Source of the DNA: an uncultured Mollicutes bacterium
GTDB lineage: Bacteria; Bacillota_I; Bacilli_A; RFN20; CAG-826
Length of the DNA stretch: 64,000 nt
Direction of reading: 5' to 3'
Assembly (NCBI GenBank): GCA_900540385.1
Contig: UQFY01000003.1
Span: 64,715 to 128,714, forward strand
The position numbers and the translations under genes are program-made. The notes beneath the pieces are model-generated. The model ran no database searches and was not told where the DNA came from. It saw nothing but the letters and a program-made list of their open reading frames with translations. Shown here piece by piece: positions 7,493 through 50,272 of this stretch. Within the stretch, counting starts at the first letter, position 1, and each line of letters opens with the position of its first letter.

Positions 7493-7650
7493 AATCCGTG
7501 TTGAATTCTAAAACTCAAGTATCTATTGTCAACAATAATTTCATCAATTTTATGATTTTCTTTTTGAAACGAGGTTTCTTCGTATAAATTGGTTCTTAAA
7601 TCCATCGTTTTTAAACAAAGGAGAGAGAGATTATAAAGGTTCAGATTTTT

Positions 7651-27227: not shown

Positions 27228-27498
27228 AAAGTAAGAAGATTATAATCTCTAAATAGATAGTTATATTGGATTATTTTTAATGATTATCTCTATTAATTTA
27301 AAACATTGAATAAACAAGTTTGACGATACAAACTTCAATATTTCTTGTTTGAGTAACAATTCTGCAACGTTAGTCCTGAAAAACGCCTTATATGTAAAAC
27401 TTTTTCAATATTTTGTTTCACATAACAACGGATAAACGCTCCTATCCACAATGAAAAAAGGTCCGACACAATCTCCGCCAGACCATGATTTCTACTGA

Positions 27499-27573
27499 GG
27501 CGGAATACGGGATTTGAACCCGTGAATGGCCGGTTCACAGCCGGTTGTGTTAGACCACTTCACCAATTCCGCC
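27499..27573 (-). tRNA. tRNA-His (anticodon GUG) with genome-encoded G-1; no encoded CCA
   Basis: Cloverleaf by hand: acceptor GCGGAAT/ATTCCGC, an extra 5' G opposite discriminator C, anticodon loop CUGUGAA, and T arm ACGGG-TTCAAAT-CCCGT. Confidence 0.9.
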
Positions 27574-28141: not shown

Positions 28142-28164
28142 TGCTAGATTATAAGGCGAAAGCA

Positions 28165-28881
28165 ATGGTCATTAGAAATCGTATCCTCAACTTCATCTAT
28201 AGATTCTTAGCACTTGCTATGGGGATTTTCACATTAGCTTGCATTTTTAATTCCGATTCTATTGATTCCATTGGTTGGAATGCTTGGAGATATTTTGGAA
28301 CATGGGTTACCTCTTATGGGGTTTTTGTTCTCTTTTTGGAAACATTCCTTTCTTTCTTTTGGCTTCTGCATAAGAGCAAACGAGGAATTCCCCAAATATA
28401 TGGTCAGCTTCTTTTCGTTGCCCTAGCTTTAGAAGTAGGCCTAGCCTTAAGCCGCCCGATTTCTTATTTATTTATTAATGGAGGAAATGTTTTAACTCCT
28501 TATTTCTCTAATGATCGCCTACTAACTCAATTATTGACCTATATCTTTTTCCCTATTCTTGTCTTTGGGGATTGGTTTCTTTTTTCTGAAAAAGGAAATT
28601 GGAAATGGCATTGGGTGATTTATTTGATTGCCGTTCCTTCTTTTTATGCCGTTTTCTCTCTTTTAAACCATTACATCCGCACTTCTACGACCTTCGCAAG
28701 TCTTCTTTTTGATAACAATACTTTCTTAAACTTCGCTGTTTTAGGCGAATGGGATGGTTGGGTTGGGGTGATTCTCTCTGTTGGAACCCTTTTCCTTCTT
28801 TATGTTTCCGTTAGTTTCTTTATGGTTTTCCTTTCTTATTTATTAAGTGGCAAATACGCTAGAAGAACTATTTCTTCGTAG
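28165..28881 (+). CDS. Polytopic membrane protein (possibly Pr6Pr/AIG1-like)
   Basis: Six hydrophobic helices and the motif FFPILVFGDWFLF. The family recollection is weak. I prefer the ATG at 28165 over the TTG at 28141. Confidence 0.55.
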   Translation: MVIRNRILNFIYRFLALAMGIFTLACIFNSDSIDSIGWNAWRYFGTWVTSYGVFVLFLETFLSFFWLLHKSKRGIPQIYGQLLFVALALEVGLALSRPISYLFINGGNVLTPYFSNDRLLTQLLTYIFFPILVFGDWFLFSEKGNWKWHWVIYLIAVPSFYAVFSLLNHYIRTSTTFASLLFDNNTFLNFAVLGEWDGWVGVILSVGTLFLLYVSVSFFMVFLSYLLSGKYARRTISS

Positions 28882-29248
28882 GTGTTATCAGTTTCCATCT
28901 CATATCCTCGTGGAAGATTTCTTTGATTTTATTAGGCGTTAAAAGAAAGAAATCGATAAGCCTTTCTTCTTTTATATCGATTGCGAGCGCTACTTTCTTA
29001 AAAATGCCCCCTAGAATGTATTCCTTTACAAGATAAAGAATTTCTTTCTTTGAATCATATGTAGCGTATAACGGATTTCCTAAGATTCTTTTGCATTCTG
29101 CAATTTTCGCAAGATAGTCTTTGGGATAACGCCTTGCAAATTCATCAAGGGTTTTATTCCAAACAACAACATTTATGTTTCCTTTTAAATGAAACATTTG
29201 AATAACTTTCTTTGGGATGTTTCCCAAACGGATTGATTCTTCCATCAT
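28868..29248 (-). CDS. Hypothetical protein
   Basis: The start MMEESIRL at 29248 is preceded by GGAGGAAATA. Its 3' end overlaps the convergent gene by 14 nt. Confidence 0.5.
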   Translation of the reverse strand: MMEESIRLGNIPKKVIQMFHLKGNINVVVWNKTLDEFARRYPKDYLAKIAECKRILGNPLYATYDSKKEILYLVKEYILGGIFKKVALAIDIKEERLIDFFLLTPNKIKEIFHEDMRWKLITPTKK

Positions 29249-29325
29249 TATTTCCTCCACCTTATAAAAGACGGATAAAAGAAGAAAATGCCGAAAATAA
29301 TGAAAATAAGCTATAATCACTACAT

Positions 29326-32483: not shown

Positions 32484-32972
32484 TTAAGCTGCTTTAAGAG
32501 CCAATATCTCTCGTAAAGCCAAATAATTTGCTTTCGCATTAACAATGTTTTTGACTTGAATCTTTTCTCTTCCCATATGAAAAGTAAGATTTCCGTTAGA
32601 AAAGAATTTGCCTCCATCTTTATAGGAGATGCTTTCTAAAGACGAAAGAGGGATGCGGTGAACTTTTCTTTCTTCGATAAGCAAGAAATCTTCTTCTTTT
32701 GCAATACGGACCTCTTTCTTTTGCAAAGTGGAATACACCGAAAAGGCTAAGCAAAGAAGGAAAAAAATATCAATGAGAAGATAGCAAATTCCATAAGGAG
32801 AAGAAGAATCGTCTTCTTGATTAAAAAAGAGAAAAGCGAAAAGAAGGGAGAGAATAAAGAGGATTCCCGTTATTACATAAGAGATGTATGCTCTTTTCTT
32901 TGAACGTTTTAAGACTACTGCTTTACTCATAGTTCTAGGATTATAGCAACAATATTTCAGGTTAAAAGACAT
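32484..32972 (-). CDS. Membrane protein with two TM helices and a C-terminal PH-like (bPH) region
   Basis: The ATG at 32972 is preceded by an AAGGGGGA SD. The longer ORF starts at a TTG with no SD. The TM pair is YVITGILFILSLLFAFLFF and CYLLIDIFFLLCLAFSVY. Confidence 0.5.
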   Translation of the reverse strand: MSFNLKYCCYNPRTMSKAVVLKRSKKRAYISYVITGILFILSLLFAFLFFNQEDDSSSPYGICYLLIDIFFLLCLAFSVYSTLQKKEVRIAKEEDFLLIEERKVHRIPLSSLESISYKDGGKFFSNGNLTFHMGREKIQVKNIVNAKANYLALREILALKAA

Positions 32973-33488
32973 ATATGTCCCCCTTCTTTTTGCTAAATTT
33001 AATGGGTTGACTTTAAAAAATATTGCTTTTGTTGGCTTACTATCGTTAGATATCAAAACCTCTTTGACCGAAAAAGATATCTCATTCGGTATTCTGATAT
33101 TTTTAAGAAAGCGTTTTCAAAACCCAAAAAAGAAATGAATTTTTCCATTTAAGTAAGCAAAGATTCATTCAAAAAAACAGTCAAATAACAAGGAACGTAT
33201 TCAATTTGAGTAAGGGAAAGAAAATTCATCGTGAAAACAAAAATGAATTTTATACGAAGGAAACGGGAGAAATCGTCTAGACATATTTATGAATTCTCTA
33301 AAAACAACTACGAAACCCCCTATTTTAAAAATGTTGGCGTTCATAACGTTTCATAAGCGAGGAACGTAATTTAATTGGGATTTGTTTTTTTCATTTCCTT
33401 TGCGATAATAGGATTGTCGAAATGAAATGTGGAAATTGAAAGATTCTTTTGTTTTCTTATTTCGTCTTTCAAAAAGGAGGCCTCTTAG

Positions 33489-34142
33489 ATGAAAAGAACA
33501 CATTTATTCTTATTTTTACCAGTTCTACTACTTTCTTCTTGCTCAAATGACTACACGAAAGTTTCAAGCGCATTGGGTTTAGCAGAAGAACAAGAACTCC
33601 TCTTTAATTTTGATGTATACAAATCAAACTCCCAATATGACTATTCTTCAAATGAAGACATTTCCTTCGAAGCTTTAAAAGAAAATGGAACAACTGTTTT
33701 TAAAAATTTAAAAGCCACGTATTCCAAGGAAGACGATAAATTCATTTACACAAATACTAGCGTCTTCTCCTATAAGAAACATTTAAAAAACGAAGGTGAA
33801 CGTTATAAATATTCTTACACTCTTGAGCCTTCCTTTTATTTCACTGGTTTAGTTTTAAACGAAGGAAAGGGCGTAAAAGCGCTCTTCTATTTCCCTTCTT
33901 ATCTTACAAACTGTTTTACGGATTCTCTTCAACCTTCGGAAAAAACGGTAACCTTTTCTGACTTGGTTTCTTTTTATGAACCTCTTTCTAATTATTCTAT
34001 TAATGAAACTAACCAAACCATCAATTTGGAATATTATGTAAGAAAAGATGGATCGAATGTTTATTCGAAAGATACCACCTACACATTAACCCTTTCGATA
34101 AAGGAAGAAAAAATCCACCTCCAAAAACATAAAAACGTTTAA
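33489..34142 (+). CDS. Lipoprotein of unknown function
   Basis: AAGGAGG SD and lipobox VLLLSSC|S. Confidence 0.7.
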   Translation: MKRTHLFLFLPVLLLSSCSNDYTKVSSALGLAEEQELLFNFDVYKSNSQYDYSSNEDISFEALKENGTTVFKNLKATYSKEDDKFIYTNTSVFSYKKHLKNEGERYKYSYTLEPSFYFTGLVLNEGKGVKALFYFPSYLTNCFTDSLQPSEKTVTFSDLVSFYEPLSNYSINETNQTINLEYYVRKDGSNVYSKDTTYTLTLSIKEEKIHLQKHKNV

Positions 34143-34190: not shown

Positions 34191-35510
34191 TTAGCCTTCA
34201 ACGACGTAGTTAATTGTTATTGAAGCGTTTTTAGAAGCGTATTTTGTTTCATCGATCAGCTTAAAATAGGAGTTTCCTTCTGGAATTGGATAGGTGTAAA
34301 CACCATTCGTATAGGTTGGAGTAACCGCCACTCCTGCATTGGTTTCAGAAATCACGGAAGAAGAAACATAGCAGCTTAAAACACCATAATATTGATGAGA
34401 ATTAACGTCTTTTTCTGTAACGGCGATGGAAGAGAGTCTGCTTAAAGAATCAACATTATAAAGATATCCAGAGCCTTTATTCGCATTTCTAAATTGAATG
34501 ATCCCCTTATTGTCGTTCGAAACAAATGAAATTTTGAACGAAACGTTATTTTTCATTATTTCCATATCGGCATAACTGGCAGGGAAATCGGAAGGGAAGA
34601 AAGATAGGCTGTTTTCTCCTGGAAGGATAGGTGCGTATTTAGAAATTTGAATAGAGAAATAGCCTTCTGTTGCCATATATTCCACTTTAAGAAGGTTCTT
34701 TTCGCTAACGGCATAGTCCTTTTCTTTATTAACAACGTATCCTGCAGTTGTTAAAGAGGTTTCGTAATTGGCTATATAGGTGTTTCCTTCAATGCTTGTA
34801 TCGTAATATCCACCCACTAAGAAGTAAGTTTCACCCGATGGGTAAGCATCGTATTTTTTGTTTTCCGCTAAGGCAAAAGAAGGCAAAATCGTTTCGTCTA
34901 CTTTGCTTAAATTGAAGAAGCTTGCAATCACCTCATATGGGAAGGTTTCATAAATCGGGGTTCCTTCTTCATACCAAGCAAAAATTTCAAAAGCGTCCTG
35001 ATAATAATCGATTTGTACCATGATTTGGTCATTGGTGTCGGCAATTGGATAATGGTAACAATAATAATCGTCACCATATTCGGTTCTCTTTCCATCGAAA
35101 ACAAAAGAGGCAGAAACAAGTTGCTGGCCATAGCTTTCTGAAAGGTCGCCAGATTTATAGTCATAGACAATAAAGCTCTCCCCTTCTTCATCTGTCCCGC
35201 TCGCTTCAACATATGAGGAAGTAAACCCAATTGGGAATGGCAAACAGGTATATCCATTAAGGTAAGTAGACATCTTTTGTAAGTCCGACTCAGACCATGC
35301 TGTTGGTTTCTCTTCGCTAGAAGAGTTTTCTTCGCTTACTGATTCTTTGCTAGAAGAAGTTTCTTCGCTTACTGATTCATTAACGGAAAAAGTTTCTTCG
35401 CTTTTTAGCGTTTCATTAGAAGAAACACTTGGATTGTTTTCATTTGATGTACAAGAAAAAAGGCTCAAACTAATCGATAGGAGCGCTAATTTCATTATTC
35501 GTTTTTTCAT
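34191..35510 (-). CDS. Lipoprotein of unknown function with a Ser/Glu-rich repeated linker
   Basis: Start MKKRIMKLALLSISLSLFSC|T at 35510. The linker repeats ESVSEE(T/N)SSS. Confidence 0.7.
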   Translation of the reverse strand: MKKRIMKLALLSISLSLFSCTSNENNPSVSSNETLKSEETFSVNESVSEETSSSKESVSEENSSSEEKPTAWSESDLQKMSTYLNGYTCLPFPIGFTSSYVEASGTDEEGESFIVYDYKSGDLSESYGQQLVSASFVFDGKRTEYGDDYYCYHYPIADTNDQIMVQIDYYQDAFEIFAWYEEGTPIYETFPYEVIASFFNLSKVDETILPSFALAENKKYDAYPSGETYFLVGGYYDTSIEGNTYIANYETSLTTAGYVVNKEKDYAVSEKNLLKVEYMATEGYFSIQISKYAPILPGENSLSFFPSDFPASYADMEIMKNNVSFKISFVSNDNKGIIQFRNANKGSGYLYNVDSLSRLSSIAVTEKDVNSHQYYGVLSCYVSSSVISETNAGVAVTPTYTNGVYTYPIPEGNSYFKLIDETKYASKNASITINYVVEG

Positions 35511-35677
35511 TTTCTGACCTTTCAAAATTTATATGCATATCTTAGGACATTTCTTATAAAGAATGAACTTTTCTCTTTAAAAATGCGAGAAACGATCAAA
35601 GCCATCGGATCAAATTGGATTTCTCAAAATGAGGTACAAAAAAGAAGTGACATTGCATCACTTCTATCATTTTTAAG

Positions 35678-35770
35678 TGGCGGAGGCGTCGGGATTCGAA
35701 CTCGAGCTAGGGATGACTCCCTACTAACAGGTTAGCAACCTGCCCCCTTCGGCCTCTTGGGTACGCCTCC
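35678..35770 (-). tRNA. tRNA-Ser (anticodon GCU), class II long variable arm, encoded CCA
   Basis: Acceptor GGAGGCG/CGCCTCC, anticodon stem-loop GCAGG-UUGCUAA-CCUGU, long variable arm, and T loop TTCGAAT with one A-C mismatch in the T stem. Confidence 0.85.
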
Positions 35771-38893: not shown

Positions 38894-40390
38894 ATGAGCT
38901 TGTGGAAGAAATTTAAACAATTGTTTGATCCAATTGATTTAACGACAGGAGGGATATGGAAAGATATTTTTATCTTTTCCCTTCCGATTATGTTGTCTAC
39001 TTTATTACAGAAAATCTATTCTTTAATTGATACGGTTATTTGTGGACAAACCCTTAATGATGCGGCCGTTGCTGCAGTTACTAACACTACCACAATCGTT
39101 TTCATGATTCTTCAATTCTCGATAGGATGTGCTTCAGGTTTCTCAGTAGTTCTTTCAAAAAAGATTGGCCAACATTCCTTAGAAGGTGCAAGAAGATCAA
39201 TTTGGACTCAGATTGTTCTTTCTATCATTATCACCATTATCTTATCTGTCGTTGGTTGCCTTGTTTTGGATTTTCTTTTGGCTTGGATTGGCATTTATCC
39301 TTCGGCAGCTGATCCTTACATGCAAGCAGAGTACGAAGCGGCTAAAACCTATCTGTTGATTATCGTAGGCGCCTCATTTTCCCAAATTGTCTATAATTTG
39401 GCCGTTACTTGTTTAAGGGCATATGGCGATTCTTTCACGCCTTTCATCTTCTTACTAATCTCCACTGTTTTGAATATTGTTTTAGATTTGGTCTTTATTG
39501 TTGTTTTTAATTGGGGAGTCGCTGGAGCCGCCTGGGCAACCGTTCTTGCCCAAGCTTTAGCGGGATTGGCCTCTTGGTTTTATCTCTTTTATCATTACAA
39601 AGAGCTTCGTTTCCAAAAGGAAGATTTAAAAATCACTTGGAACGATGTCGTTGAACATCTGAAAAATGGTCTTCCTCTTGCTTTCAATTTCTCTATTCTT
39701 TCCATTGGAACCGTCATTATGTCTGGAGCAGTCATTGCTTTCGACCGTCTTCCAAACGGGAATATGAATCCTGCTTTACCAGCTCAACTTGGTTATGGTG
39801 TTGCAGGTAAAATCTTCCAATTGGCGATGGGCTTCCAAGAATCTTTAGGTCTTGCCATGATTTCTTATATGGCTCAAAACTTAGGTGCTGGAAAATATGA
39901 GCGCATCAAGAAAGGCTTCCACGTTTCTATTCTTTATGGAATGATCATTACGGTTTTCATCAACGTCGTTGTTCTTCCACTCACCATCAATGGAGCCTAT
40001 CAATATCTTTTCCTTTCAACTGAAAAAGTAACTGCCGATTCCATCAAATGGGGCAACACCTACCTGTATGTTGCCATCCCATTGATGTTTATCTTAATGT
40101 TTCTTTTCCTTTTCCGAAATTGTTTGGAAGGTCTAGAAAAACCTCTCTTCCCGTTCTTAGCAGGAATTGCAGAACTAGTTGCCCGTGTGCTTATTTGTTC
40201 TTTCTTACCAGCCCTTTTTAATGGCGGACCTATTAATTCCGCAGCCTCCATTTGGGCTTTTATCGGTGCCTCGTTAGGCGATCCTGGCGCTTGGGTTTTA
40301 GCTACTTTGACGATGCTTATCCCGATGTTGCTAGCGATTTATCGTCCAAAGAAAAACGTTATTCAGCAAGAAGAACACGAGATTCTCTAA
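38894..40390 (+). CDS. MATE-family efflux transporter
   Basis: 12 TM helices. The N-terminus is MatE-like (PIMLSTLLQKIYSLIDTVICGQ). Confidence 0.85.
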   Translation: MSLWKKFKQLFDPIDLTTGGIWKDIFIFSLPIMLSTLLQKIYSLIDTVICGQTLNDAAVAAVTNTTTIVFMILQFSIGCASGFSVVLSKKIGQHSLEGARRSIWTQIVLSIIITIILSVVGCLVLDFLLAWIGIYPSAADPYMQAEYEAAKTYLLIIVGASFSQIVYNLAVTCLRAYGDSFTPFIFLLISTVLNIVLDLVFIVVFNWGVAGAAWATVLAQALAGLASWFYLFYHYKELRFQKEDLKITWNDVVEHLKNGLPLAFNFSILSIGTVIMSGAVIAFDRLPNGNMNPALPAQLGYGVAGKIFQLAMGFQESLGLAMISYMAQNLGAGKYERIKKGFHVSILYGMIITVFINVVVLPLTINGAYQYLFLSTEKVTADSIKWGNTYLYVAIPLMFILMFLFLFRNCLEGLEKPLFPFLAGIAELVARVLICSFLPALFNGGPINSAASIWAFIGASLGDPGAWVLATLTMLIPMLLAIYRPKKNVIQQEEHEIL

Positions 40391-43300
40391 CTTTGATGCG
40401 GTTTCTTTTGCAAGAAGAATCTTTAATCGCTCTCGTTAGATAGGCATTCTTCGTTTGAAGAAGGACTTTATAGCCAAAGACAAGGGATACTTGTTTGACT
40501 AGGTCACCGAGATCCATTTCGCCTTGTTCTTTTAATATGTCTGCCGCACAGTTAGCAACCTCTTGATAACAAATATCGCTTAATGTTCTTAGGGATTTAT
40601 TCTCTGGATCTAAACGGTAATTTAAGAAAGATGCTTCTTCAAAATCCTTTGGAACGTAGAATTTTGTTCCATCGTTAATGAAATAAGTCACTCGATCAGC
40701 AATTTCTTGCAAGGCTTTTTCGATTTCTCCGCGGGAAATAGATCCTACGCGTTTCTTACCAACCGCCAAACAATAACGGCGGTTAATCAGTTCAAGAGAA
40801 ATAGGGCCTTCATACTGAATTAAAGAAAGAAGGTATGGAGCAAGGTTTGTTTTATCGCACGCTTCTTCCGATAAGGTGTAAGGAATGGATTTTTTCGTCA
40901 TGGCTTGTTTGATAAAGAGAGGTTTTTTCTTAAAAACGTTATTCTCTTTCCCTTGATTTGGATTCGTAAGGACTTCATTTAAGGCCGTTACAATGTATTG
41001 AACGATTTCTTTACGATGATCAAGGTATTCCACCGCATAAACATGGCAAAGATTCCAGCCAAGACGATGAAGGATGTTAGGCTCATTGATGTTGCGATCA
41101 CGGCATGTCATATTCGCAAAATGCTCATTATCAAGCAAAACACCTAATAGATATTCGTTTGGTTTTTCTTTTAAAGAAATGGCCAAATCAACTTTAAAGG
41201 AAGATTCTCCTAGATTCTCTTCAACGTGATAGCCAAGCTTACGGATATCTTCTGCAAGATACTTTTCAATACCAATCTCTCTTTTTTCTAGATTATTGGC
41301 GTTAAAAGGAAGGTAATCATAGCCAAATTTAGCAAAAGAGAGGAAGTCTTTTAGATATTGAGCACCAGCATTCTTTGCACGTTCCGCTTTAATGTCCGCA
41401 GGATTTAAGGAAGAGAAAACAACCATTTCCTCACGAGCACGGGAAACCGCTACATTTAAACGTCTTTCACCTTTTTTCAAGGAAAGAGGGCCAAAATTCA
41501 AAGAAATGGTTCCGTTTTTATCAGGACCATATGTCGTTGAGAAAAGAATCACGTCTCTTTCGTCGCCTTGAACGTTTTCGAGGTTCTTAATAAAGATCTT
41601 TTCTCCGCCTGGTTCGAGATTTCCGTTTCCAAGTTTGGAGGTTTCTTTATCTAGCATATCTTCGATAACATTTTGTTGAGCTTCGTTAAAAGTGATGACG
41701 CCAATAGAATGCGTACGAAGTTCTTTGTCTTTAAGACGACGAAGAATCTCTTTGACCACTTCTTTCGCTTCCGTGCGGTTAATACCCCTGCCTCTTTCAT
41801 AAACGCCTTTAACATAACGATAACCGACTGCTTTTTCATCGTTTGTAGGCGAAGGGAAGGTGAGCAAGGAATTGTCATAGAATTTGTTATTAGAGAAAGC
41901 GATTAAGGATTCATGGCGAGAACGATAATGCCAAAGAAGTCTTTTACGAGGCAAGCCCAAAACCAAAGCGTCATCCAAAAGAGATTCCAAATCTTCATCT
42001 AAGGAAGAGAAAGCGTTATCGGAGTCATTATTTCCGATTGTTGTGGTAAAGAAAGAGGTTGGAGGCATCTGTTCTTCATCACCTGCAATAACTACGCTAT
42101 CGCCTCTAGCAATCGCTGAGATGGCTTCCGAGGTAGGGATTTGAGAGGCTTCGTCAAAGATTACGACATCAAAATGATAATCGTGAATATCTAAGAATTG
42201 CGAAACGGATATTGGTGACATCATAAAGCATGGAGTTAAGTTCTGAATAATGTCTTTGTAGTTATGGAAAATTTGTCTTAAAGACACACCTCTTCCACCG
42301 TTTTTGCATAACTTGGCCAACTGATTAAAAGAGGTTGATTCAGCAAAATGGAAAGCGTCTCTTGGATAAGAAGAAGAGATTTTTGCCGCCGTAGTAATGG
42401 TAGCCAAATTGGAGAATTCCTGAATATCGTTAGCGTATTGATGAACAAGGTTGTTCATTTCTTTGCTAGAAAGAAGAGCGAGATTGTCCTCTTTCAAACG
42501 ATAGGAAAGAATGGAGTTTGCCAAGGATTTTTCAAAATCGGAGAGAAGAACTTGTTCTTTGATTTTTCCTTTTTTGAAAAATGAGACGTATTCTTTTGGA
42601 AGAAGAGTTTCCAAATCATCTAGCTTCAATAACAAAGATGTCCATTCGGCTAGGCTTCCAATTCTTCCGGAAGCAGAACGGAGTTTGCTATAAAGCACAC
42701 CAAAAAATTTGTTATCATCTGGATAAAGATTGATATCAAAAGAAGCGTTAGCAAGAAGTTCTTCTTTCTTTTTCTCGAATTCATAGAAATCCTTAAGGAA
42801 AGTGTTTTGTATCTTGGAGAACAAGCTTCCTTGGTCTAAATCGGACAAATAGGTAGCGAACGCCTCTTTTTTATTTGGAAGATAATCCAAAGAAAGGATG
42901 TTTTTACTGATCTTCAAAGTCGTTTCGAACTCATGTAAGACTTCCTCTCCATCTGGATAAGTCAAAAATGGGTGCTTCTTTAAGAAGAAACGGACGTATG
43001 GATCGAAGGTAGATAGTTCTTTATTCTGTTCTTGGATATGTTTTAAAAGTTCTAATTCGTCTTTTAAGTTATCGTTTTTTAACGCTTCTTTGTTTTTAAC
43101 GAAAGGCTTCAGCTTTTTCTTTAAAACGGAAAGAGCTTTATGGCAGGCAAAGAAAGACTGAGATTCAGCAAGCAAGAACTCTTTTTCTAATTCTTCACCG
43201 TTTTGGTTTAAGAAAGAATCGTTAAAGGAAACAAGGATTTTTTCCTTGCTTTTTGTAATATCGATGGTGAGATTTAATGCGGAACGAATCTCATCTTCTT

Positions 43301-46190
43301 TTTCAACGAAGTTCTCATCGAGAAAATGTTCAGGCCATTTCTTCTCCCCTTCACGAAGAATCTCGAGGATTTCTACGTAGCGCTTAGCGTTATTGTAAGT
43401 TTCTTCTAATTGTTTCTGACGGTTGAAGACATTGTATAAATCGAGTTTCAGACGTTCTAAAAGTGGAAGAAGATTATCAATTTCTTTCTTCATTGAGTCA
43501 CGGTATTCCATCGAATAGGAACGTTCTTGGAAACCGATGAAAGGAGAAGAAATATAAGAGTCGAAAGAAAGGGATGTTGAAGCAATATCTTTGAGAAGTT
43601 GAAGCGTTTTTTCATATTTGTTTTCGCTAAAATTCGTTAAGAATTCATAGGAAAACGCATACACGTCCCCGCTATCTTCGTTTTCAAGATAGGAAAGAAT
43701 TGCTTGATAAGGAGAATAAAGGAATTCTCTTTTTTCATGCAAGGAAGAGATTTTAGAATTTAATTCCGCTTGTTTCTCTTCGATTTTCTCATTGCATTCG
43801 TTAAATCCATCAGGATTCGCGACAGGTCCCCCTAACGAAAGCAATTTCTGATAGGTTTCTAATACTTGAGACTTTGGTTCTTGGATATTGGCCAACTCTA
43901 GGGTGAATTGCCCTAAAGAAAGATCGTCTAAACGACGCTTAACCACATCAAGAGCTACTTCTTTTTCAGCAACGAAAAGAACTTTCTTGCCATGATAAAG
44001 AAGATTCACGATCATATTGGCAATCGTTTGGGATTTGCCTGTTCCTGGAGGGCCATCCAAAATGAAAGATTCTCCTTTATCTGCGTCATATATGGCCTTA
44101 ATTTGGGAAGAATCCGCGCTTAAAGGGAATATGACTTCATCGTTTTTGATTTCTTTTACAGGTGTTTCTTCTTTAAAAGACAAATCTTTATCCGCGTTTA
44201 CAAAGCTCGAAACAATTTTGTTTGAAAGCATGATGTCTCGATTGTTTTTCAAATCACTCCACATCACGAAATGGGAGAAAGAGAAAAGAGAAAGAATGGA
44301 TGGGTTCTCTAAAAGAAGCCAGTTCTTCATTGGAGTGATAATTCGTCTGATTTCGTTATAAATGAGACGGAGATCAATCTTTCCGTTTTCTTTTTTAGGT
44401 AACTCATTTAAAGAAGAGAAATCCAAATGGAAGTTTTGTTTGAAATATTCAAAAAGGGTTTGGTTTAAGCCGATTTCATCGTAGTCATATTCCAAAACGT
44501 ACGAATTGCCCGTCTTTCTTTTTGGAATACGCACAGGGAGGAGCAATAATGGAGCGTACATCTCCCCTTTGGCGTGGTTTGCACTGATTTCATTGTCGTA
44601 CCAACGAATTAAACCAAGAGTGAGGAAAAGAGGGTTACAGCCACTTTCTTCCAAAGAGGTGTTGGCTTTTCTTGATAAGTTCTTTGCCGCATCAATTTTA
44701 TTGCCCGCCTTGCAAAAGGAAGAGATTTTTCCTTTTCCATATCCTTCATGAATGAGGTTCAAAGACAAGGCGTCTTGAAAAGAAGGAATTTCTCCATCTG
44801 GGAAAAGAATGTTTTGCTCCACTTCTTGAAGAGAGACTTTATCGTTATTAGAAAGGAAATCTAAGAAGCTTTCCGCATCATCGACCATGATTTGCAAAGT
44901 GTTCGCTTTGATTTTTAAGTTCAAGAGTTTATTTGCAAGATTTAAATCCAGAAGCTTGTCTTCCCAATATTCATAACGGTTCTTATTTCGCTTGTTCTCA
45001 TTGGAAAGATAACGTCTTGCGTCCAAATCGACTTCCGAGATTTTTTCATTCTTCTTCTCGTCTATTGAAGGAATCACAATCTTTTTCTCACCGTTTTCTT
45101 CCTTCATGGAGGGAATAGGCCAGATCAATTCATTACGGCAAGAATGGATATCGATAGCATAATGGAAATTCTTTTCCTCTTGGAGGGTTTTATATGCTAA
45201 ATCCTTTGCATCTTGGAAAGAAAGATCGTCTTTGCTGATGGCAGTGCATTCTAAAAGGCAAAGGTGTTCAAAGCCCTTCGATGCGGCATTAATAATGACT
45301 TGACCATTCTCCTCAAGCGGGGAAAGGGACATCTCTTCATCTAGCCAAACACCTAACATACAGTGGTTGGCAAGCAAAATAAGCACAGGGCGAAGGCCAA
45401 TCGCTTCAATAACGGAAGCGAAAAGCAAAGAGAAATCCAAGCAATTACCCATCCTATCCCCTAAAACGTTTTTAGGAAGGCGAACACGTTGGAAGAGTTT
45501 ATCAAAAGAAGCGGGTGAAATGATATAGCGAAGGGAAAGGCTTTTAAGAGTTTGATATACAGAGTCAATATCTTTTAGAACTTCGTTTGGATCATGAGAA
45601 AGATAACCGTCAAAAGAAGCGTCTTCGTATTTCTTTTTACGATAATCCATCGCGGAAGAAACGATTTGCTTTATCCCTTCTTCATTTGGCGTTACAAACG
45701 ATGCAAGCAAGTCACGAATGCGGTAAGAAGAAACGCTTAACTCAATAGGATCAAAACGAAGATCAACGGACGAGGTTGCTAACATCTCCCCTTTCGAATT
45801 GAATAAGGTTGCTCTTAAAGAGCCTGGAAGGCTTTCCGTAAGTTGATAAAGTTTCAAAGGATCAAGAAAAAATTGAAATTGACGGATGAGAGTTCCTCTA
45901 TTTCCTTTTTCGATACAAGAGAGGGGAATATTCGAGATTTCAATCAAGGAAGGAACCACGTCAAAACGAAGGGTCGCATCCTTCACATCTTCTTGCCCTG
46001 AATTCTTGATTAAAATCGATTTTAAGAAACAAAATGGGTTCGTTTCGATACCATGGGTCGCCTCTTTTTGTAAAAGATAAGCTTGATAATTAACGTAGGA
46101 GATATTTTTCTCCGCTTGAATTTCTAAAGAAAGTCCACTCTCTGCCATATGATTCATTATAGCAATCAAGAGGGCTTTTAAGGTATCCAA
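40359..46190 (-). CDS. 1943-aa multidomain protein: transglutaminase-like Cys-protease fold, DUF4011-like region, Upf1-like SF1 helicase (AAA_11/AAA_12) with a long helical insertion, Vsr/DUF559-like restriction-endonuclease fold, DUF3320-like tail
   Basis: TGase-like core GNC(250)LDFS...ANH(276)CMLGVW...LLECT. DUF4011-like region at aa 405-660. Walker A GPPGTGKS (713-720). Motif II VIFDEASQ (1343-1350), then GDEEQMPP, YRSRHESL, QGDERDVILFS and RRLNVAVSRAREE. REase-like GYHVEENLGESSFKVDLAI...GWNLCHVYAVEY (about 1650-1725). DUF3320-like IQYEGPISLELINRRY. The start is uncertain: TTG at 46190, or ATG at 46157 or 46148. Confidence 0.85.
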   Translation of the reverse strand: MDTLKALLIAIMNHMAESGLSLEIQAEKNISYVNYQAYLLQKEATHGIETNPFCFLKSILIKNSGQEDVKDATLRFDVVPSLIEISNIPLSCIEKGNRGTLIRQFQFFLDPLKLYQLTESLPGSLRATLFNSKGEMLATSSVDLRFDPIELSVSSYRIRDLLASFVTPNEEGIKQIVSSAMDYRKKKYEDASFDGYLSHDPNEVLKDIDSVYQTLKSLSLRYIISPASFDKLFQRVRLPKNVLGDRMGNCLDFSLLFASVIEAIGLRPVLILLANHCMLGVWLDEEMSLSPLEENGQVIINAASKGFEHLCLLECTAISKDDLSFQDAKDLAYKTLQEEKNFHYAIDIHSCRNELIWPIPSMKEENGEKKIVIPSIDEKKNEKISEVDLDARRYLSNENKRNKNRYEYWEDKLLDLNLANKLLNLKIKANTLQIMVDDAESFLDFLSNNDKVSLQEVEQNILFPDGEIPSFQDALSLNLIHEGYGKGKISSFCKAGNKIDAAKNLSRKANTSLEESGCNPLFLTLGLIRWYDNEISANHAKGEMYAPLLLLPVRIPKRKTGNSYVLEYDYDEIGLNQTLFEYFKQNFHLDFSSLNELPKKENGKIDLRLIYNEIRRIITPMKNWLLLENPSILSLFSFSHFVMWSDLKNNRDIMLSNKIVSSFVNADKDLSFKEETPVKEIKNDEVIFPLSADSSQIKAIYDADKGESFILDGPPGTGKSQTIANMIVNLLYHGKKVLFVAEKEVALDVVKRRLDDLSLGQFTLELANIQEPKSQVLETYQKLLSLGGPVANPDGFNECNEKIEEKQAELNSKISSLHEKREFLYSPYQAILSYLENEDSGDVYAFSYEFLTNFSENKYEKTLQLLKDIASTSLSFDSYISSPFIGFQERSYSMEYRDSMKKEIDNLLPLLERLKLDLYNVFNRQKQLEETYNNAKRYVEILEILREGEKKWPEHFLDENFVEKEDEIRSALNLTIDITKSKEKILVSFNDSFLNQNGEELEKEFLLAESQSFFACHKALSVLKKKLKPFVKNKEALKNDNLKDELELLKHIQEQNKELSTFDPYVRFFLKKHPFLTYPDGEEVLHEFETTLKISKNILSLDYLPNKKEAFATYLSDLDQGSLFSKIQNTFLKDFYEFEKKKEELLANASFDINLYPDDNKFFGVLYSKLRSASGRIGSLAEWTSLLLKLDDLETLLPKEYVSFFKKGKIKEQVLLSDFEKSLANSILSYRLKEDNLALLSSKEMNNLVHQYANDIQEFSNLATITTAAKISSSYPRDAFHFAESTSFNQLAKLCKNGGRGVSLRQIFHNYKDIIQNLTPCFMMSPISVSQFLDIHDYHFDVVIFDEASQIPTSEAISAIARGDSVVIAGDEEQMPPTSFFTTTIGNNDSDNAFSSLDEDLESLLDDALVLGLPRKRLLWHYRSRHESLIAFSNNKFYDNSLLTFPSPTNDEKAVGYRYVKGVYERGRGINRTEAKEVVKEILRRLKDKELRTHSIGVITFNEAQQNVIEDMLDKETSKLGNGNLEPGGEKIFIKNLENVQGDERDVILFSTTYGPDKNGTISLNFGPLSLKKGERRLNVAVSRAREEMVVFSSLNPADIKAERAKNAGAQYLKDFLSFAKFGYDYLPFNANNLEKREIGIEKYLAEDIRKLGYHVEENLGESSFKVDLAISLKEKPNEYLLGVLLDNEHFANMTCRDRNINEPNILHRLGWNLCHVYAVEYLDHRKEIVQYIVTALNEVLTNPNQGKENNVFKKKPLFIKQAMTKKSIPYTLSEEACDKTNLAPYLLSLIQYEGPISLELINRRYCLAVGKKRVGSISRGEIEKALQEIADRVTYFINDGTKFYVPKDFEEASFLNYRLDPENKSLRTLSDICYQEVANCAADILKEQGEMDLGDLVKQVSLVFGYKVLLQTKNAYLTRAIKDSSCKRNRIKVRESRVLLAE

Positions 46191-46243
46191 AAATCATCTT
46201 TTTTAGAGGGGTGAAAAAAGAAATCAGTCAATGGAAGAAAACG

Positions 46244-46777
46244 TTAATCGAAAACCGTTTTTGTTTTGGAAAAATGGTCTCTAAGAATTTCTTTCTCTTT
46301 TAGCAAAGAGAGGGAATCAAGGAAGGCTTCCCCTTCTTTTGAGAACCAAAAATCAAGGTCATGGTAGAAAGGATCCTCTTCCGTCAAAGAAAGGACGAGG
46401 GGGCACAAAACTCTTTGAATTAGGTTCTTAAGATATTCTGGGTAATTCTCTTTCATCTTCTCAGAATGAAGATAAGAGGAATGAAGGAGGAAATTTAAGA
46501 AATTGACATCATCTTCTTCCCAAGAAAAAGGTTTTTTCTCTTTGACCCATTTTTCCAAATCCGACGTTGTTTGAAGAAAATAAGAAAGAAACTCTTTTTG
46601 ATGTTTTTTTAAAAGAATCGCCTCATCTTTCTTAGAACCATTAAGAAAGGAAATAGCCGCTTCATGAAGTCTTTCTTTCTCTTTTTCATCGAAAGGAATC
46701 ATTTCTAAAGACGAAAACTGTTCATTTAAATAAGAAATGTCACAGATGAGGTCTAATTTAAAATTGGTCAGGTCCAT
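46244..46777 (-). CDS. Hypothetical 177-aa protein, encoded directly upstream of the giant helicase-nuclease gene
   Basis: ORF with a GGAGGG SD and no recognisable motif. It is acidic and probably helical. It lies 53 nt upstream of the 1943-aa ORF. Confidence 0.55.
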   Translation of the reverse strand: MDLTNFKLDLICDISYLNEQFSSLEMIPFDEKEKERLHEAAISFLNGSKKDEAILLKKHQKEFLSYFLQTTSDLEKWVKEKKPFSWEEDDVNFLNFLLHSSYLHSEKMKENYPEYLKNLIQRVLCPLVLSLTEEDPFYHDLDFWFSKEGEAFLDSLSLLKEKEILRDHFSKTKTVFD

Positions 46778-46802
46778 AAAAGAAAACCCTCCGAAGAGGG
46801 CG
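46778..46802 (-). terminator. Hairpin and U-tract immediately after proS; its 3' arm is the SD of the next gene
   Basis: The minus strand reads GCCCTC-TTCG-GAGGGT followed by TTTCTTTT and then the ATG at 46777. Confidence 0.5.
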
Positions 46803-46806
46803 TAAA

Positions 46807-48246
46807 TTAATAAGCGCGAGCGAAATAGGCGATAACCGTAGCCTTATTTCCGGTAACAGGATCGACTTTATCGCTATCGGCAGGAAGTTTCTCAAAGATA
46901 CAACGAGCAGTCGCTCCATTGGTCTTCGCTTTAATGATGTCTTCCGTTTCTGGCCTTCCATCGTAAGCAAATTTAACAAAACCACCTTTTTGGTCAAGGA
47001 TAGCTGTCATTTCTTCGAGGGTGTTGGCTTCAGAAATATGGGCATTGAGATTATCTAATGCTTTTTGATACATACGGTTATGGATATCTTTTAAGATAGC
47101 TGGCATAGAAGAAGCAAGGCCTTCAATCTTCACCGCTTCTTTCTTTCCATCCACACGTGTGGTTAGAAGAGCTTCGCCTCTTTCAAGATCACGAGGTCCA
47201 ACTTCAATACGAAGAGGGACGCCCTTCATTTCATATTGAGCGAATTTCCATCCTGGAGTACGGTTTTCATCGTCATCTAATTTCACGCGAATGCCTTGCG
47301 CTTTGATTTCCTCATAAAGTTTGCGGCACGCTTCCAAAACGCCTGGAGTTTGCATTCTAACAGGAACAATCACAGCTTGAATTGGAGCAACGTATGGTGG
47401 TAAAACCAAACCATTATCATCACCATGAACCATGATAATTGCGCCAAGAAGACGAGTAGAAACGCCCCAGGAAGTTTGATAAGGGGTTTCAAGAGCGTTC
47501 TTTCTTCCTAAGAAAGAGACTTCTGCAGCTTTTGCAAAGCCTTGTCCAAGATAATGGGAAGTTCCGCTTTGAAGCGCTTTGCCATCATGCATTAAAGCTT
47601 CGACGGTATAAGTATCTTTTGCACCGGCAAATCTTTCGTGTTCCGTTTTTTCGCCCATTAAAAATGGGATAGCAAGGAGGTCTTTTCCAAGATCATTATA
47701 GACGTGAAGCATGTCGATGGAATTCTTTTGAGCTTCTTCTTCCGTTTCAAAAAGACAATGTCCTTCTTGCCAAAGAAATTCCGCTCCGCGAAGGAAAGGA
47801 CGGGTTGTCTTTTCCCAACGAACCACAGAGCACCATTGGTTATAACGGATAGGGAGATCACGATAGGAATTGATTCTTTTTTTGAAAAGTTCGGAGAAGA
47901 TTGTTTCGGATGTTGGACGAATGATTAAAGGATCCGTAAGTTGGTTTCCTCCACCAATGGTGGCAACTAAGCATTCTGGAGCAAAGCCTTCCACGTGCTC
48001 TTTTTCTTTGTTGAAAACAGAGGCAGGGATAACCATAGGAAGATAAACATTCTCGGCGCCGTTTTCTTTAAAACGACCATTCAAATAGTTTTGAATTTCT
48101 TCCCACATCGCATAAGAGTAAGGAAGATATTCGATAAATCCTTTAACGGAATAATATTCCATCAAATCTGCTTTACGGCATACATCGGTATACCATTTCG
48201 CAAAGTCAACATCACGCGAAGTGATGGCATCATTTTTCTTTTCCAT
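46807..48246 (-). CDS. proS: Prolyl-tRNA synthetase, archaeal/eukaryotic-like short type (no INS editing domain)
   Basis: Class II motifs FRGAEFLWQEGH and GTSHYLGQGFAKAAEVSF. The C-terminus ends ...YFARAY. The 479-aa length fits this type. Confidence 0.95.
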   Translation of the reverse strand: MEKKNDAITSRDVDFAKWYTDVCRKADLMEYYSVKGFIEYLPYSYAMWEEIQNYLNGRFKENGAENVYLPMVIPASVFNKEKEHVEGFAPECLVATIGGGNQLTDPLIIRPTSETIFSELFKKRINSYRDLPIRYNQWCSVVRWEKTTRPFLRGAEFLWQEGHCLFETEEEAQKNSIDMLHVYNDLGKDLLAIPFLMGEKTEHERFAGAKDTYTVEALMHDGKALQSGTSHYLGQGFAKAAEVSFLGRKNALETPYQTSWGVSTRLLGAIIMVHGDDNGLVLPPYVAPIQAVIVPVRMQTPGVLEACRKLYEEIKAQGIRVKLDDDENRTPGWKFAQYEMKGVPLRIEVGPRDLERGEALLTTRVDGKKEAVKIEGLASSMPAILKDIHNRMYQKALDNLNAHISEANTLEEMTAILDQKGGFVKFAYDGRPETEDIIKAKTNGATARCIFEKLPADSDKVDPVTGNKATVIAYFARAY

Positions 48247-48249
48247 AAT

Positions 48250-50058
48250 TTATTGTCTGTTTCCTTTCATTTCCTTTAGACGGATCTCGTCTTTTTCTTT
48301 AAGCGGTACAAACCCATTTTGATAAGGGCCAAATTGGTCAGAGGCAACATAGTCAATTCCAGAGCCAACTACCAATTCTATCGCATTCCAATCAGCAAGG
48401 TTAGAACCAACGATAATCTTCTTGTATTTAAGGAGTTTTTCTACCAAGGCGTGGAGTTGAGAACGAATGACCATGTCCATATGTTTGCTATCCGTGTCAT
48501 CATTACGGAAATCCACGAAGAAGATATCCATCAGTTTCAAAATGTTTTCATCCGCGTTAATCGCTTTGCCTTGAACGATAAGTCCCAAAGAAAAACCGGA
48601 CTCATGAACGTTTTTAAGCAAGGAGCATAAATTATCCATTCCTATTTGCTTTGAACCAGCCAGGACGTCATTTTCTTTAAGAAGGAACATTAGATTTGCG
48701 TCCTTAGCCCCCTTAAGATTGGAGAAGATTGCTGGTATCGTTTGAAGCTCTCTTACCATAATAGGATAGAAAAGACGCTGAGAACGGAGTGGTCTTTCGG
48801 AAACGAAACGAGAAACAATCGTCTTTGCAAGATAGCCAAAGAGGTTATTTTGGTCTTTGGCACGGATCGCGTAGTTCTTTAGTTCCTCAATAGTTGCAAA
48901 AGAAGTTCTATCCGCATCAGGAACAGGTTTTGATACATATCCAAGCACGGAATGTCTTGATACGCCATAAACCGGTTGGAAGAAATTGTTGATGCGTTTA
49001 TCAAAAATGATTTTCTCGACTTCAGAACGATATTTGGAAACATCGAAATTCACATAATCGTCCACTCCTTTGCGGTAATAGACCAAAGAGGAAGAAGTGT
49101 CATAGGCATTCATCGCCGTTCTTTGAGAATAATCAATGAGCGATTCTGTATCACCAAAAAGATCTTTATTTGCAACAATGCCAGCTTTAACAACATAGAT
49201 AGCGTCGTTCATTTTATTCTTTGTCGTCAAAGCATTCGTAACCCCGTTAATCGTTCTTAAAGCGTAGGCCACCGCTTCTTCATGGTCGTTGATATCGAAG
49301 TTACAAACGAGAAGTTCATTATCTGCCAGTCTCATTAATTGAGCGTTGCCATATATATATCGATCCAAAGCTGTGCGGAACTTATTGCAAACGGTTCTAG
49401 GGACGTTGTTCTCATAGGCATCGCCTTTCTTTTTCTTCAAAGTGAAACAAAATGTTGTTCCTCTAGAAGAGCCGTATTTCTTAATGGAGTTAGCGAATTG
49501 CGTTTCCGTTACAAAAACAGTATTTGGGACATTCCCCTTCTTTCGAATCGCATTTTGAAGGAGATAACTTTCAAGATGAAGCAAGCCACTTGAAGGGTTT
49601 GATTTGGTAATGCGTAAAAAAGAGGAAGTTGTTTTCTTATGGGTTTTTAAGTAAACGTTGGTTTGTAAGAAGTCTGTGGTTTGTTTTCCAGAAAGAATGT
49701 TTTCAATCCAAGTGTGGACCTTCGTTTTTTCTTCATCAGGGAAAGAATCATAGAACTGTTCCATGGTGATACTCTTTTTTTCGCGGAGGTTAGATAAATC
49801 GAAATACGTAACGGAATTATGGACTGAGTCAATGCGATAAGCTCTTGCTCCACTAGATTCATAATTCACCGTGCGAACAAATTTTTTATCGAAGTATCGA
49901 AGGACGAAATAAGTCGTTATCAAAGCAGCAAAGGAAAGAAGGATAATAACAAAAGTGATCCAGCCTATAATCGTTCTCCAATCCGCGGGAGAGAAACGAC
50001 TTACAAAGTCATTTAAGACATTTGTGTTTGTTTTCATTACGAATTCATAATTGAACAT
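48250..50058 (-). CDS. Membrane-anchored protein with degenerate GGDEF-like and EAL-like domains
   Basis: N-terminal TM helix WITFVIILLSFAALITTYFVL. LMRLADNELLVCNF sits where RxGGDEF is expected. FQPVYGVSRHSVLGYVSKP sits where YQPI...EALxR is expected. The EAL-like C-terminus reads IIVGSNLADWNAIELVVGSGIDYVASDQF. Only 3 nt separate it from proS. Confidence 0.55.
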   Translation of the reverse strand: MFNYEFVMKTNTNVLNDFVSRFSPADWRTIIGWITFVIILLSFAALITTYFVLRYFDKKFVRTVNYESSGARAYRIDSVHNSVTYFDLSNLREKKSITMEQFYDSFPDEEKTKVHTWIENILSGKQTTDFLQTNVYLKTHKKTTSSFLRITKSNPSSGLLHLESYLLQNAIRKKGNVPNTVFVTETQFANSIKKYGSSRGTTFCFTLKKKKGDAYENNVPRTVCNKFRTALDRYIYGNAQLMRLADNELLVCNFDINDHEEAVAYALRTINGVTNALTTKNKMNDAIYVVKAGIVANKDLFGDTESLIDYSQRTAMNAYDTSSSLVYYRKGVDDYVNFDVSKYRSEVEKIIFDKRINNFFQPVYGVSRHSVLGYVSKPVPDADRTSFATIEELKNYAIRAKDQNNLFGYLAKTIVSRFVSERPLRSQRLFYPIMVRELQTIPAIFSNLKGAKDANLMFLLKENDVLAGSKQIGMDNLCSLLKNVHESGFSLGLIVQGKAINADENILKLMDIFFVDFRNDDTDSKHMDMVIRSQLHALVEKLLKYKKIIVGSNLADWNAIELVVGSGIDYVASDQFGPYQNGFVPLKEKDEIRLKEMKGNRQ

Positions 50059-50181: not shown

Positions 50182-50272
50182 GGAGAAGTACCCAAGTGGC
50201 CGAAGGGGGCAGTCTCGAAAACTGCTAGTAGGTGTATGCCTAGCAAGGGTTCAAATCCCTTCTTCTCCGCCA
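50182..50272 (+). tRNA. tRNA-Ser (anticodon CGA), class II, encoded CCA
   Basis: Acceptor GGAGAAG/CTTCTCC, anticodon stem-loop GCAGT-CTCGAAA-ACTGC, long variable arm, and T arm AAGGG-TTCAAAT-CCCTT. Confidence 0.9.

Follow-up and report, generated by a model that had tools for sequence, protein, structure and literature searches.

A divergent ProA-like giant gene downstream of proS in an uncultured Mollicutes bacterium and its putative role in defence

The window analysed here is a 64,000-nucleotide stretch of DNA from an uncultured Mollicutes bacterium (contig UQFY01000003.1). Its minus strand carries a giant gene downstream of proS, the prolyl-tRNA synthetase (ProRS) gene, with a small open reading frame (ORF) between the two. 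The encoded protein of ~220 kDa joins a transglutaminase-like module, a DUF4011 region, a Upf1-like helicase of superfamily 1 (SF1), a Vsr-like nuclease and a basic tail in one polypeptide. Profile and structure comparisons suggest that it is a divergent relative of the ProA and PDC-S37 proteins, whose members are catalogued as single-polypeptide anti-phage or anti-mobile-element defence proteins.

The giant gene, its domains and its family

The giant ORF is unbroken over 40359..46190 on the minus strand, which gives 1943 aa from TTG 46190. A first-pass annotation had called this ORF together with a 177-aa ORF in the same orientation, and both exist where it placed them. The giant ORF was also intact in 13/13 orthologues examined. 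Two further in-frame starts are ATG 46157, which gives the 1932-aa form found in public collections, and ATG 46148. An extended -10 promoter element, TGCTATAAT, lies 7 nt from ATG 46148 (protein start 'MAESG'). Its consensus is TGnTAnAnT, and the TG-T-A-A-T positions are invariant across nine orthologous loci. A simple sigma-70 scan missed the element because no -35 box is present. In a family alignment of 77 proteins that phmmer had retrieved with the N-terminal module, most members have their first Met at ATG 46148. From the position of the -10 box and the alignment of first Met residues, the likely product is therefore the 1929-aa protein; the TTG 46190 start was rejected in its favour on the same two grounds. 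The mRNA is probably leaderless, starting at ATG 46148. With this start, the spacer to the small ORF becomes 95 nt, not the 53 nt given previously.

The elements of the giant gene are listed below. Residues are numbered either from TTG 46190 or from the Met at 46157 (TTG number minus 11).

40359..46148, minus strand: ProA-like giant gene, likely product 1929 aa from ATG 46148
46164-46156, minus strand: extended -10 promoter element TGCTATAAT, conserved in 9/9 orthologous loci
45753..46133, minus strand: N-terminal β-sandwich (Ig-like), about residues 9-135 from Met 46157 (AlphaFold, predicted local distance difference test score, pLDDT, mostly >90)
45123..45716, minus strand: transglutaminase-like Cys-His core, about residues 148-345 from Met 46157
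44445..44957, minus strand: DUF4011 (Pfam PF13195, residues 412-582 in TTG numbering, E 1.1e-27, profile 1-157/158)
43665..44114, minus strand: N-terminal part of helicase domain RecA1 (AAA_11) with Walker A (Pfam, residues 693-842 in TTG numbering, E 3.1e-19)
42288..43847, minus strand: weakly conserved ~520-aa insert separating motifs I/Ia from motif II, overlapping the end of the AAA_11 match
41358..42287, minus strand: helicase motifs II to VI, being the C-terminal part of RecA1 and RecA2 (AAA_12)
40980..41267, minus strand: Vsr/DUF559-like restriction-endonuclease-fold domain MTES_1575 (Pfam PF18741, residues 1642-1737 in TTG numbering, E 5.1e-15, profile 2-96/96)
40359..40967, minus strand: basic C-terminal tail (DUF3320-like, predicted winged helix-turn-helix (wHTH), pI 9.1) and stop codon

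In the sister subclade formed by contigs L003, L004, L005 and L009 (related contigs are given by L numbers), a 24-nt insertion at the -10/ATG site supplies a Shine-Dalgarno leader. Contigs L002, L006, L014 and L017 lack the insertion and keep the box next to the ATG. By their sequences, these look like leaderless and leadered versions of one gene, a natural switch between subclades. At its 3' end, the giant gene overlaps a convergent MatE gene by 32 nt (40359-40390), and the overlap has the same length in all full-length orthologous loci (e.g. 15768-15799 in L001, L002, L004 and L009).

Sequence profile analysis showed that the DUF4011 region, the Upf1-like SF1 helicase and the DUF559/Vsr-like nuclease, all named in the first-pass annotation, are borne out by Pfam at significant E-values. 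The motifs that it quoted (C250, H276, LLECT with E314, Walker A at 713-720 and motif II at 1343-1350) are correct in TTG numbering. The Walker A motif reads GPPGTGKSQT, with its lysine at K708 from Met 46157 (K719 from TTG); motif II, DEASQ, occupies residues 1335-1339 from Met 46157. Other helicase motif residues are also present (Q1363, R1412, R1565/R1566), and AAA_12 matches residues 1408-1593 in TTG numbering (E 3.6e-20). The closest helicases of solved structure by sequence (phmmer) are Upf1, IGHMBP2, Nam7 and Sen1, with E-values of 3e-9 to 1e-4 over both RecA halves; the Upf1 and Sen1 matches span residues 1329-1586. The protein also has a partial NCBIfam match to TIGR00376, the IGHMBP2 family. 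The insert between the helicase motifs, which the first-pass annotation described as helical, is present and measures ~520 aa rather than ~600 aa. Its mean identity to the family is just 18%, with an alignment so nearly free of gaps that the insert can be regarded as a family feature. Orthologues are 13 to 89% identical within the insert, and in each comparison the adjoining helicase parts are better conserved.

The nuclease domain has conserved residues D1657, D1676 and D1687-R1688 (from Met 46157), which do not vary in the family or among the orthologues. The Vsr or restriction-endonuclease fold acts on DNA. Pfam and NCBIfam scans detected no HEPN or other RNase domain on the giant protein. 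The tail stands where a DUF3320-like region was expected; its Pfam match is weak (E 0.007, 16.7 bits against a cutoff of 25), and it matches solely the ProA profile, at positions 1771-1902.

The N-terminal module was assigned mainly by structure. Its sole transglutaminase-type Pfam match is DUF553, which lies below the gathering score (E 0.018, 14.9 bits against 20.5). An AlphaFold2 model of residues 12-404, made from a 51-sequence alignment, has a mean pLDDT of 90.8 and a predicted template modelling score (pTM) of 0.87. The model consists of a β-sandwich (about residues 9-135) followed by an α/β core (about 148-345). A Foldseek search against the PDB placed human TG3 and TG2 at the top (E 1e-4, probability 0.87-0.97), and these enzymes share the domain order of the module, a β-sandwich and then the core. 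Further matches include the bacterial putative cysteine proteases 3isr and 3kd4 and the PNGase structures 3esw/2f4m; the β-sandwich partially matches RhoGDI, CARDB and HAP2-D3. When the core was compared with the PDB as a sequence profile, both of the best two matches were named 'Transglutaminase-like domain-containing protein'. They are weak (E 0.08 and 0.37), and both align exactly on the G-x-C-x-D/E...helix motif. A search of a viral structure library with the N-terminal model gave just uncharacterised proteins and partial β-sandwich matches.

The key residues of the core are C239/D241, H265 and E303 from Met 46157 (C250, H276 and E314 in TTG numbering). C239, E251 and H265 are each at least 93% conserved across the 77 family members, and the spacing between Cys and His is a constant 28 residues in nearly all relatives. 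Since the model, the Foldseek matches, the profile matches and the conserved Cys and His agree, a transglutaminase-like assignment of the core is supported by modelling. The first-pass annotation's proposal of such a core is upheld by AlphaFold, Foldseek and the PDB profile, with weak support from Pfam. In Rad4/XPC, this fold binds DNA, which makes a non-catalytic role possible. Catalysis is favoured because the Cys and His are conserved.

Conservation extends over the whole protein. Among 162 columns that are at least 93% identical across the 77 family members, 161 are kept in the giant protein, and the exception is G1347S. In the 13 orthologues, the transglutaminase Cys, His and Glu, the Walker A Lys, the motif II DE, the arginine fingers and the nuclease D/D/DR are all conserved save for one substitution: the Cys is kept in 12 of the 13, and the remaining one has Ser.

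Two defence libraries recognise the protein, in line with the earlier view that a helicase joined to a nuclease follows a defence-type logic. NCBIfam NF058533, 'anti-phage protein ProA' (an equivalog model of 1903 positions), aligns residues 50-1908 with profile positions 6-1902 (E = 0). When the protein was scanned as four separate segments, including the first 390 aa and the tail, each segment matched ProA, in order. PADLOC PDC-S37 aligns residues 404-1936 with profile positions 8-1541/1550 (E 1.7e-291, 968.7 bits). The ProA profile gives 1506 bits to relative P0004, whose N-terminal module is 60% identical, and 2225, 2197 and 2097 bits to the Klebsiella protein, the Bacteroides protein and P0043, respectively. 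These profile comparisons suggest that the giant protein is a ProA-family homologue, below the level of a certified equivalog.

The family is large. With just the N-terminal module as query, an exhaustive phmmer search identified 3647 representative proteins (E <= 1e-3), including 1718 at E <= 1e-10; most of the 3647 are ~1900-2000 aa long with the module at the N-terminus. A word-indexed search with the N-terminal 404 aa had returned three matches and suggested rarity, which was wrong. The module had been put forward as undescribed and without assigned function. That view does not hold, given NCBIfam ProA, PADLOC PDC-S37, an architecture published in 2013 (PMC3710099) and these 3647 relatives.

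Genomic neighbourhood and the small upstream ORF

The genes and elements upstream of the giant gene are as follows.

46244..46777, minus strand: small ORF, 177 aa, acidic (pI 5.0), all-α, with a coding sequence conserved in orthologues
46786..46801, minus strand: terminator-like hairpin GCCCTC-TTCG-GAGGGT with a T-run, between proS and the small ORF
46807..48246, minus strand: ProRS gene (proS), the syntenic anchor (Pfam tRNA-synt_2b, HGTP_anticodon, ProRS-C_1)
48250..50058, minus strand: gene for a basic 602-aa protein (pI 9.2) whose N-terminus contains a single hydrophobic segment resembling a transmembrane helix

The 602-aa protein belongs to no Pfam, NCBIfam or PADLOC family. A gene for a protein of ~600 aa is paired with proS in every related contig that was read, including those without the giant gene; it stands a few nt ahead of proS or overlaps it by a few nt. 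Around the giant gene, the window carries housekeeping genes of a kind usual in Bacillota, which encode ProRS, Rex, SpoU, NAD(P)HX dehydratase, CoaD, RsmD, YlbF, Def, RNase J and YitT.

Among contigs retrieved with either the giant protein or the small ORF as query, all that span the region have one and the same block: the ~600-aa gene, proS, the small ORF, the giant gene and, convergently oriented, the MatE gene. A second sample was drawn through ProRS, which avoids the bias of searching with the giant gene. The ProRS relatives are metagenome-assembled genomes (MAGs) labelled 'Bacilli bacterium' or 'Mollicutes bacterium', with contigs of up to 1.6 Mb. Five of their loci are listed by ProRS identity.

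L027, ProRS 81%: after proS, a 441-aa gene, a small-ORF homologue and the giant gene
L028, ProRS 76%: after proS, the giant gene directly, without the small ORF
L029, ProRS 71%: after proS, a 113-aa ORF and an HD-domain gene; giant gene absent from the slot
L030, ProRS 70%: after proS, a 477-aa ORF and a TetR gene; giant gene absent from the slot
L031, ProRS 68%: after proS, a Fic gene and an ATPase_2/DUF234 gene; giant gene absent from the slot

The pair of the ~600-aa gene and the ProRS gene is retained in all five of these loci. The giant gene follows proS in all relatives whose ProRS is at least 76% identical, and it is fixed and vertically inherited within this clade. What follows proS varies from lineage to lineage, and this slot may therefore be a small hotspot of variation. 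Genes with a Fic domain occur within a few kb of proS or of the giant gene at L027 3674-5947, L028 16372-17418, L031 9699-10595 and L019 14025-15071. PADLOC returned nothing for the other genes inserted near related giant genes.

More distant relatives, ~40% identical, were found in several settings. One giant gene stands directly after proS, with the small ORF absent. In L026 (11915-17214), a proS-linked giant gene is followed directly by JetA-JetB-JetC, the Wadjet anti-plasmid system. One stands directly after gidAB-parAB, near the presumed origin, and one has Schlafen-AlbA_2, Fic, XRE and AbiEii genes around it. The PLSDB database contains 581 plasmid records with a match, of which 244 are from Klebsiella; 221 of the 581 are predicted to be conjugative. 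The Klebsiella ProA copy examined lies on a conjugative plasmid, is flanked by insertion sequences (IS) and adjoins an AbiJ-NTD4 gene. A megablast search of complete E. coli genomes with the Klebsiella ProA gene gave no match. In phage genomes, a near-full-length homologue was found in just one unannotated 11-kb faecal contig, and the family is essentially not phage-borne. At this larger scale, the gene behaves like an accessory, mobile and defence-associated gene in a variable slot. Synteny without a link to variable regions, which the first-pass annotation had counted against a defence role, is found inside the clade but not across the wider family.

In P. aeruginosa, a large DUF4011 gene with an adjacent small hypothetical gene is core to every isolate, and the DUF4011 gene flanks the defence hotspot cDHS1 (PMC10250203). 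The arrangement of giant gene and Wadjet in L026 resembles this cDHS1 setting.

The small ORF encodes a protein with three conserved motifs (DFKIDIIxEISYLNE, WEEDDVNFLNF and DxFYxDxSYWF). AlphaFold predicts a nine-helix bundle with a pLDDT of 88.8. A fold search of the PDB gave no significant match (best E 0.7), and the protein belongs to no Pfam, NCBIfam or PADLOC family. Its own family consists of 29 clusters among 5.8 billion proteins, all within this clade. Judging from the conserved sequence, the small ORF is a real, conserved and clade-specific orphan gene. In L027, its homologue stands in front of the giant gene (hhalign 99.9%). The first-pass annotation had asked whether homologues of the two genes occur together. 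The small ORF is absent upstream of the ProA homologues in Klebsiella plasmids, in Bacteroides and in L019, L025, L026 and L028.

Most orthologous small ORFs begin right at the proS stop codon, with a gap of 1-3 nt or an overlap, and ~100 nt separate them from the giant gene. In the window, the 3' arm of the hairpin, GGAGGG, lies 9 nt upstream of the small-ORF ATG and doubles as its Shine-Dalgarno sequence. The hairpin is impossible in L003, L004, L005, L009 and L014, because there the small ORF begins no more than 3 nt after proS or overlaps it.

Several other features of the window and the related contigs were recorded. The window contains a lysine riboswitch at 7335-7498 (minus strand), tRNA-His at 27497-27573 (minus), tRNA-Ser(GCT) at 35678-35770 (minus) and tRNA-Ser(CGA) at 50182-50272 (plus). 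The two tRNA-Ser genes bracket a block that runs from a GH38 gene to the gene of the 602-aa protein. An island between them was considered and rejected, as the interval includes proS and the block recurs in related genomes; no integrase was found among the scanned neighbours of the block, and flanking repeats were not searched for. ORFs of 150-444 aa without a Pfam family occur at 28141-28881, 28868-29320, 32484-33056, 33489-34142 and 34191-35525, and between L001 and L002 the stretch that holds them is less conserved than the rest of the block. L001 (CAVGNR010000007.1), L004-L006 and L008-L010 are MAG contigs 64-99% identical to the window locus, with ~36-38% GC where computed. They are titled Escherichia coli, Bacteroides uniformis, Alistipes communis, Faecalibacterium prausnitzii and so on, labels that are evidently wrong for these bins. 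L012 (NZ_OY725931.1, 'plasmid 29' of Bacteroides finegoldii) has rpsA, glutamine synthetase III and bglX around ProA, and a reverse-transcriptase-family gene directly downstream of ProA on the opposite strand. This PLSDB 'plasmid' is probably a chromosomal fragment.

Proposed function and alternative explanations

We consider it reasonably likely that the giant gene encodes a divergent ProA/PDC-S37 defence protein, in which a helicase licenses a nuclease and a transglutaminase-like module acts as a switch or effector, and which has become fixed after proS. In this mechanism, the Upf1-like SF1B motor would load on single-stranded or branched nucleic acid from an invading replicon and translocate with ATP. 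Translocation would position or license the Vsr-like nuclease to nick or cut DNA, and the basic wHTH tail would help to hold the DNA. The transglutaminase-like module, with its intact Cys-His-(Glu/Asp) centre, would most likely be an active peptidase/amidase-type switch or a second effector. It would sense or process a protein, either phage-derived or the giant enzyme itself; a passive scaffold seems less likely. Within the clade, whose members are uncultured small-genome Bacilli, the gene would have become fixed after proS, with vertical inheritance and a promoter of its own, and the 177-aa gene would be a clade-specific addition.

Several points weigh against this explanation. The ProA score of the giant protein is 1474 bits, 26 bits short of the curated cutoff of 1500, and the NCBI pipeline would not give it this name. 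A full-text literature search found no paper mentioning PDC-S37 and no primary ProA study; since such a study was not located, the anti-phage label of ProA goes back to database curation. No defence island, defence gene, integrase, transposase or mobile-element gene lies near the giant gene in the window, and its stable synteny within the clade is atypical of defence genes. The account given here of its substrate (DNA or RNA), of its trigger and of what the transglutaminase-like module does is inferred throughout.

An alternative is a housekeeping function, in which the protein would maintain the genome by acting on the cell's own nucleic acids, through R-loop removal, the handling of replication–transcription conflicts or repair nicking, rather than provide immunity. 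Where ProRS is at least 76% identical, synteny after proS is strict, though the giant protein has diverged to ~40-65% identity where measured. All of its neighbours in the window are housekeeping genes, and in one relative the gene immediately follows gidA-gidB-parA-parB, close to the presumed origin. The intact catalytic residues and ORFs are consistent with purifying selection, the P. aeruginosa DUF4011 gene is core to every isolate (PMC10250203), and the family is nearly absent from phage genomes. However, in the three next-closest lineages sampled (ProRS 68-71%), the slot after proS lacks the giant gene and holds other, variable genes; the gene is therefore dispensable at this scale. The family is also frequent on plasmids, many of them conjugative, and the copy examined is IS-flanked. 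Other members adjoin Abi, Schlafen and Wadjet genes, and two independent curated defence resources, PADLOC and NCBIfam, include the family. On balance, a housekeeping role seems unlikely.

The first-pass annotation treated the 177-aa ORF as a small partner of the giant gene. In such a two-gene module, the giant enzyme would have a dedicated partner in the acidic helical protein, which might inhibit it as an antitoxin-like brake, serve it as an adaptor or act as a sensor. Sequence conservation shows the small ORF to be a genuine coding gene, and where present it lies directly upstream of the giant gene on the same strand; this adjacency is kept in L027 despite the 441-aa gene between the small ORF and proS. 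Its acidic pI of 5.0 and its confident helical bundle without a known fold would be compatible with an inhibitor or adaptor. So would its faster evolution, at 35-46% identity among the more distant orthologues against ~65% for the giant protein. The distribution of the small ORF points the other way. Its 29 clusters are all in the clade, and ProA homologues stand alone in the Klebsiella plasmid, in Bacteroides, L019, L025, L026 and L028. A conserved extended -10 promoter separates the two genes. In most orthologues it hugs the proS stop codon at ~100 nt from the giant gene, which is the pattern of a proS-operon gene, and the whole block is syntenic, so adjacency carries little weight. The partnership was not established: the small ORF is missing at most ProA loci and the conserved promoter lies in between. 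A functional partnership is possible but unsupported, and we regard the two-gene module as improbable.

Given still less credence is a reading in which a ProA-type enzyme was domesticated as a vertically inherited, proS-linked 'core immunity' or genome-maintenance gene and acquired the small helical orphan as a dedicated partner. If this were true, the small protein might restrain the enzyme, mimic DNA or work as a sensor adaptor, in a two-component variant of an otherwise single-gene system.

RNA surveillance of the kind performed by eukaryotic Upf1, Mov10 and ZNFX1, with a motor that tracks RNA and an RNA- or translation-directed output, is the least probable explanation: the nearest solved helicases (Upf1, IGHMBP2, Nam7 and Sen1) are RNA or RNA/DNA helicases and in some family members a HEPN RNase domain is present as well (PMC3710099), but the effector fold here is of the Vsr/DUF559 type, the tail is basic and wHTH-like, Pfam and NCBIfam found no HEPN or other RNase domain in the giant protein, and defence by the related protein Hhe depends on its Vsr-type nuclease (bioRxiv 10.1101/2022.06.16.496414).

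A divergent ProA/PDC-S37 defence protein is thus preferred over these alternatives. A defence-type gene that is fixed beside an essential tRNA-synthetase gene over substantial divergence bears on the origin of 'core' immune genes. The core DUF4011 gene that flanks the P. aeruginosa defence hotspot offers a parallel.

Comparison with known systems

The giant protein is in the same length class as the ProA proteins, is collinear with them from end to end and shares all of their segments. It differs in belonging to a low-GC, fast-diverged branch that is ~30% identical to the Klebsiella and Bacteroides members. Its gene lies on the chromosome in a syntenic position after proS, has a clade-specific small gene in front of it and probably gives a leaderless mRNA. 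PDC-S37 is a candidate entry in PADLOC; the 'S' presumably marks a single-gene candidate. Its profile aligns from residue 404 onward, and the N-terminal transglutaminase-like module is thus not modelled by the PADLOC profile.

Hhe, according to what Gao et al. 2020 reportedly described, combines a helicase with a Vsr endonuclease and is a single-gene defence of E. coli. The giant protein and Hhe have in common the order DUF4011, SF1 helicase with a large insert, and Vsr-type nuclease. The Hhe matches are strong but partial, in PADLOC (1e-122) and in NCBIfam, where the score is far short of the cutoff (NF042953, 600.5 bits against 2000). The Hhe alignment starts at about residue 490, and the full-protein scan carries it to residue 1756; in segment scans, neither residues 1-390 nor the last 213 residues matched the Hhe profile. 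Hhe therefore lacks the β-sandwich/transglutaminase-like module and apparently also the C-terminal tail of the ProA-type proteins. From these alignments, the ProA-type proteins can be described as an Hhe-like core with an added N-terminal β-sandwich/transglutaminase-like module and C-terminal tail, and the conserved Cys-His module is what sets them apart from Hhe. Hhe protects against lambda, T3, T7 and PhiV-1, and its nuclease mutant E1731A is inactive, which makes a Vsr-type residue essential for defence (bioRxiv 10.1101/2022.06.16.496414). Hhe is triggered by phage DNA-metabolism genes and is toxic when co-expressed with a trigger gene (bioRxiv 10.1101/2024.10.10.617714).

The architecture of transglutaminase, SF1 helicase, Vsr restriction endonuclease and wHTH was published in 2013 by Anantharaman, Makarova, Burroughs, Koonin and Aravind, with a predicted wHTH that overlaps DUF3320 (PMC3710099). 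The domain string of the MTES_1575-type proteins equals that of the giant protein. MTES_1575 also bears a HEPN RNase domain (PMC3710099), which was not detected in the giant protein.

The first-pass annotation also drew a comparison with Mokosh. A Upf1-like/COG1112 helicase is in common, and the similarity is one of superfamily and logic only. The MkoA and MkoC profiles of PADLOC match the C-terminal half of the helicase alone (residues 1334–1606, ~1e-31). No phospholipase D (PLD) domain was found by Pfam, and there was no MkoB-type partner and no Mokosh match outside the helicase of the giant protein. The eukaryotic SF1B helicases Upf1, IGHMBP2 and Sen1 are the best solved-structure sequence matches to its helicase, whereas they have no nuclease or transglutaminase-like module, carry other accessory domains and serve an RNA-centred biology. 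Taken together, these comparisons suggest that the protease–helicase–nuclease fusion, which looks novel from the raw sequence, is a divergent branch of a populous and catalogued family.

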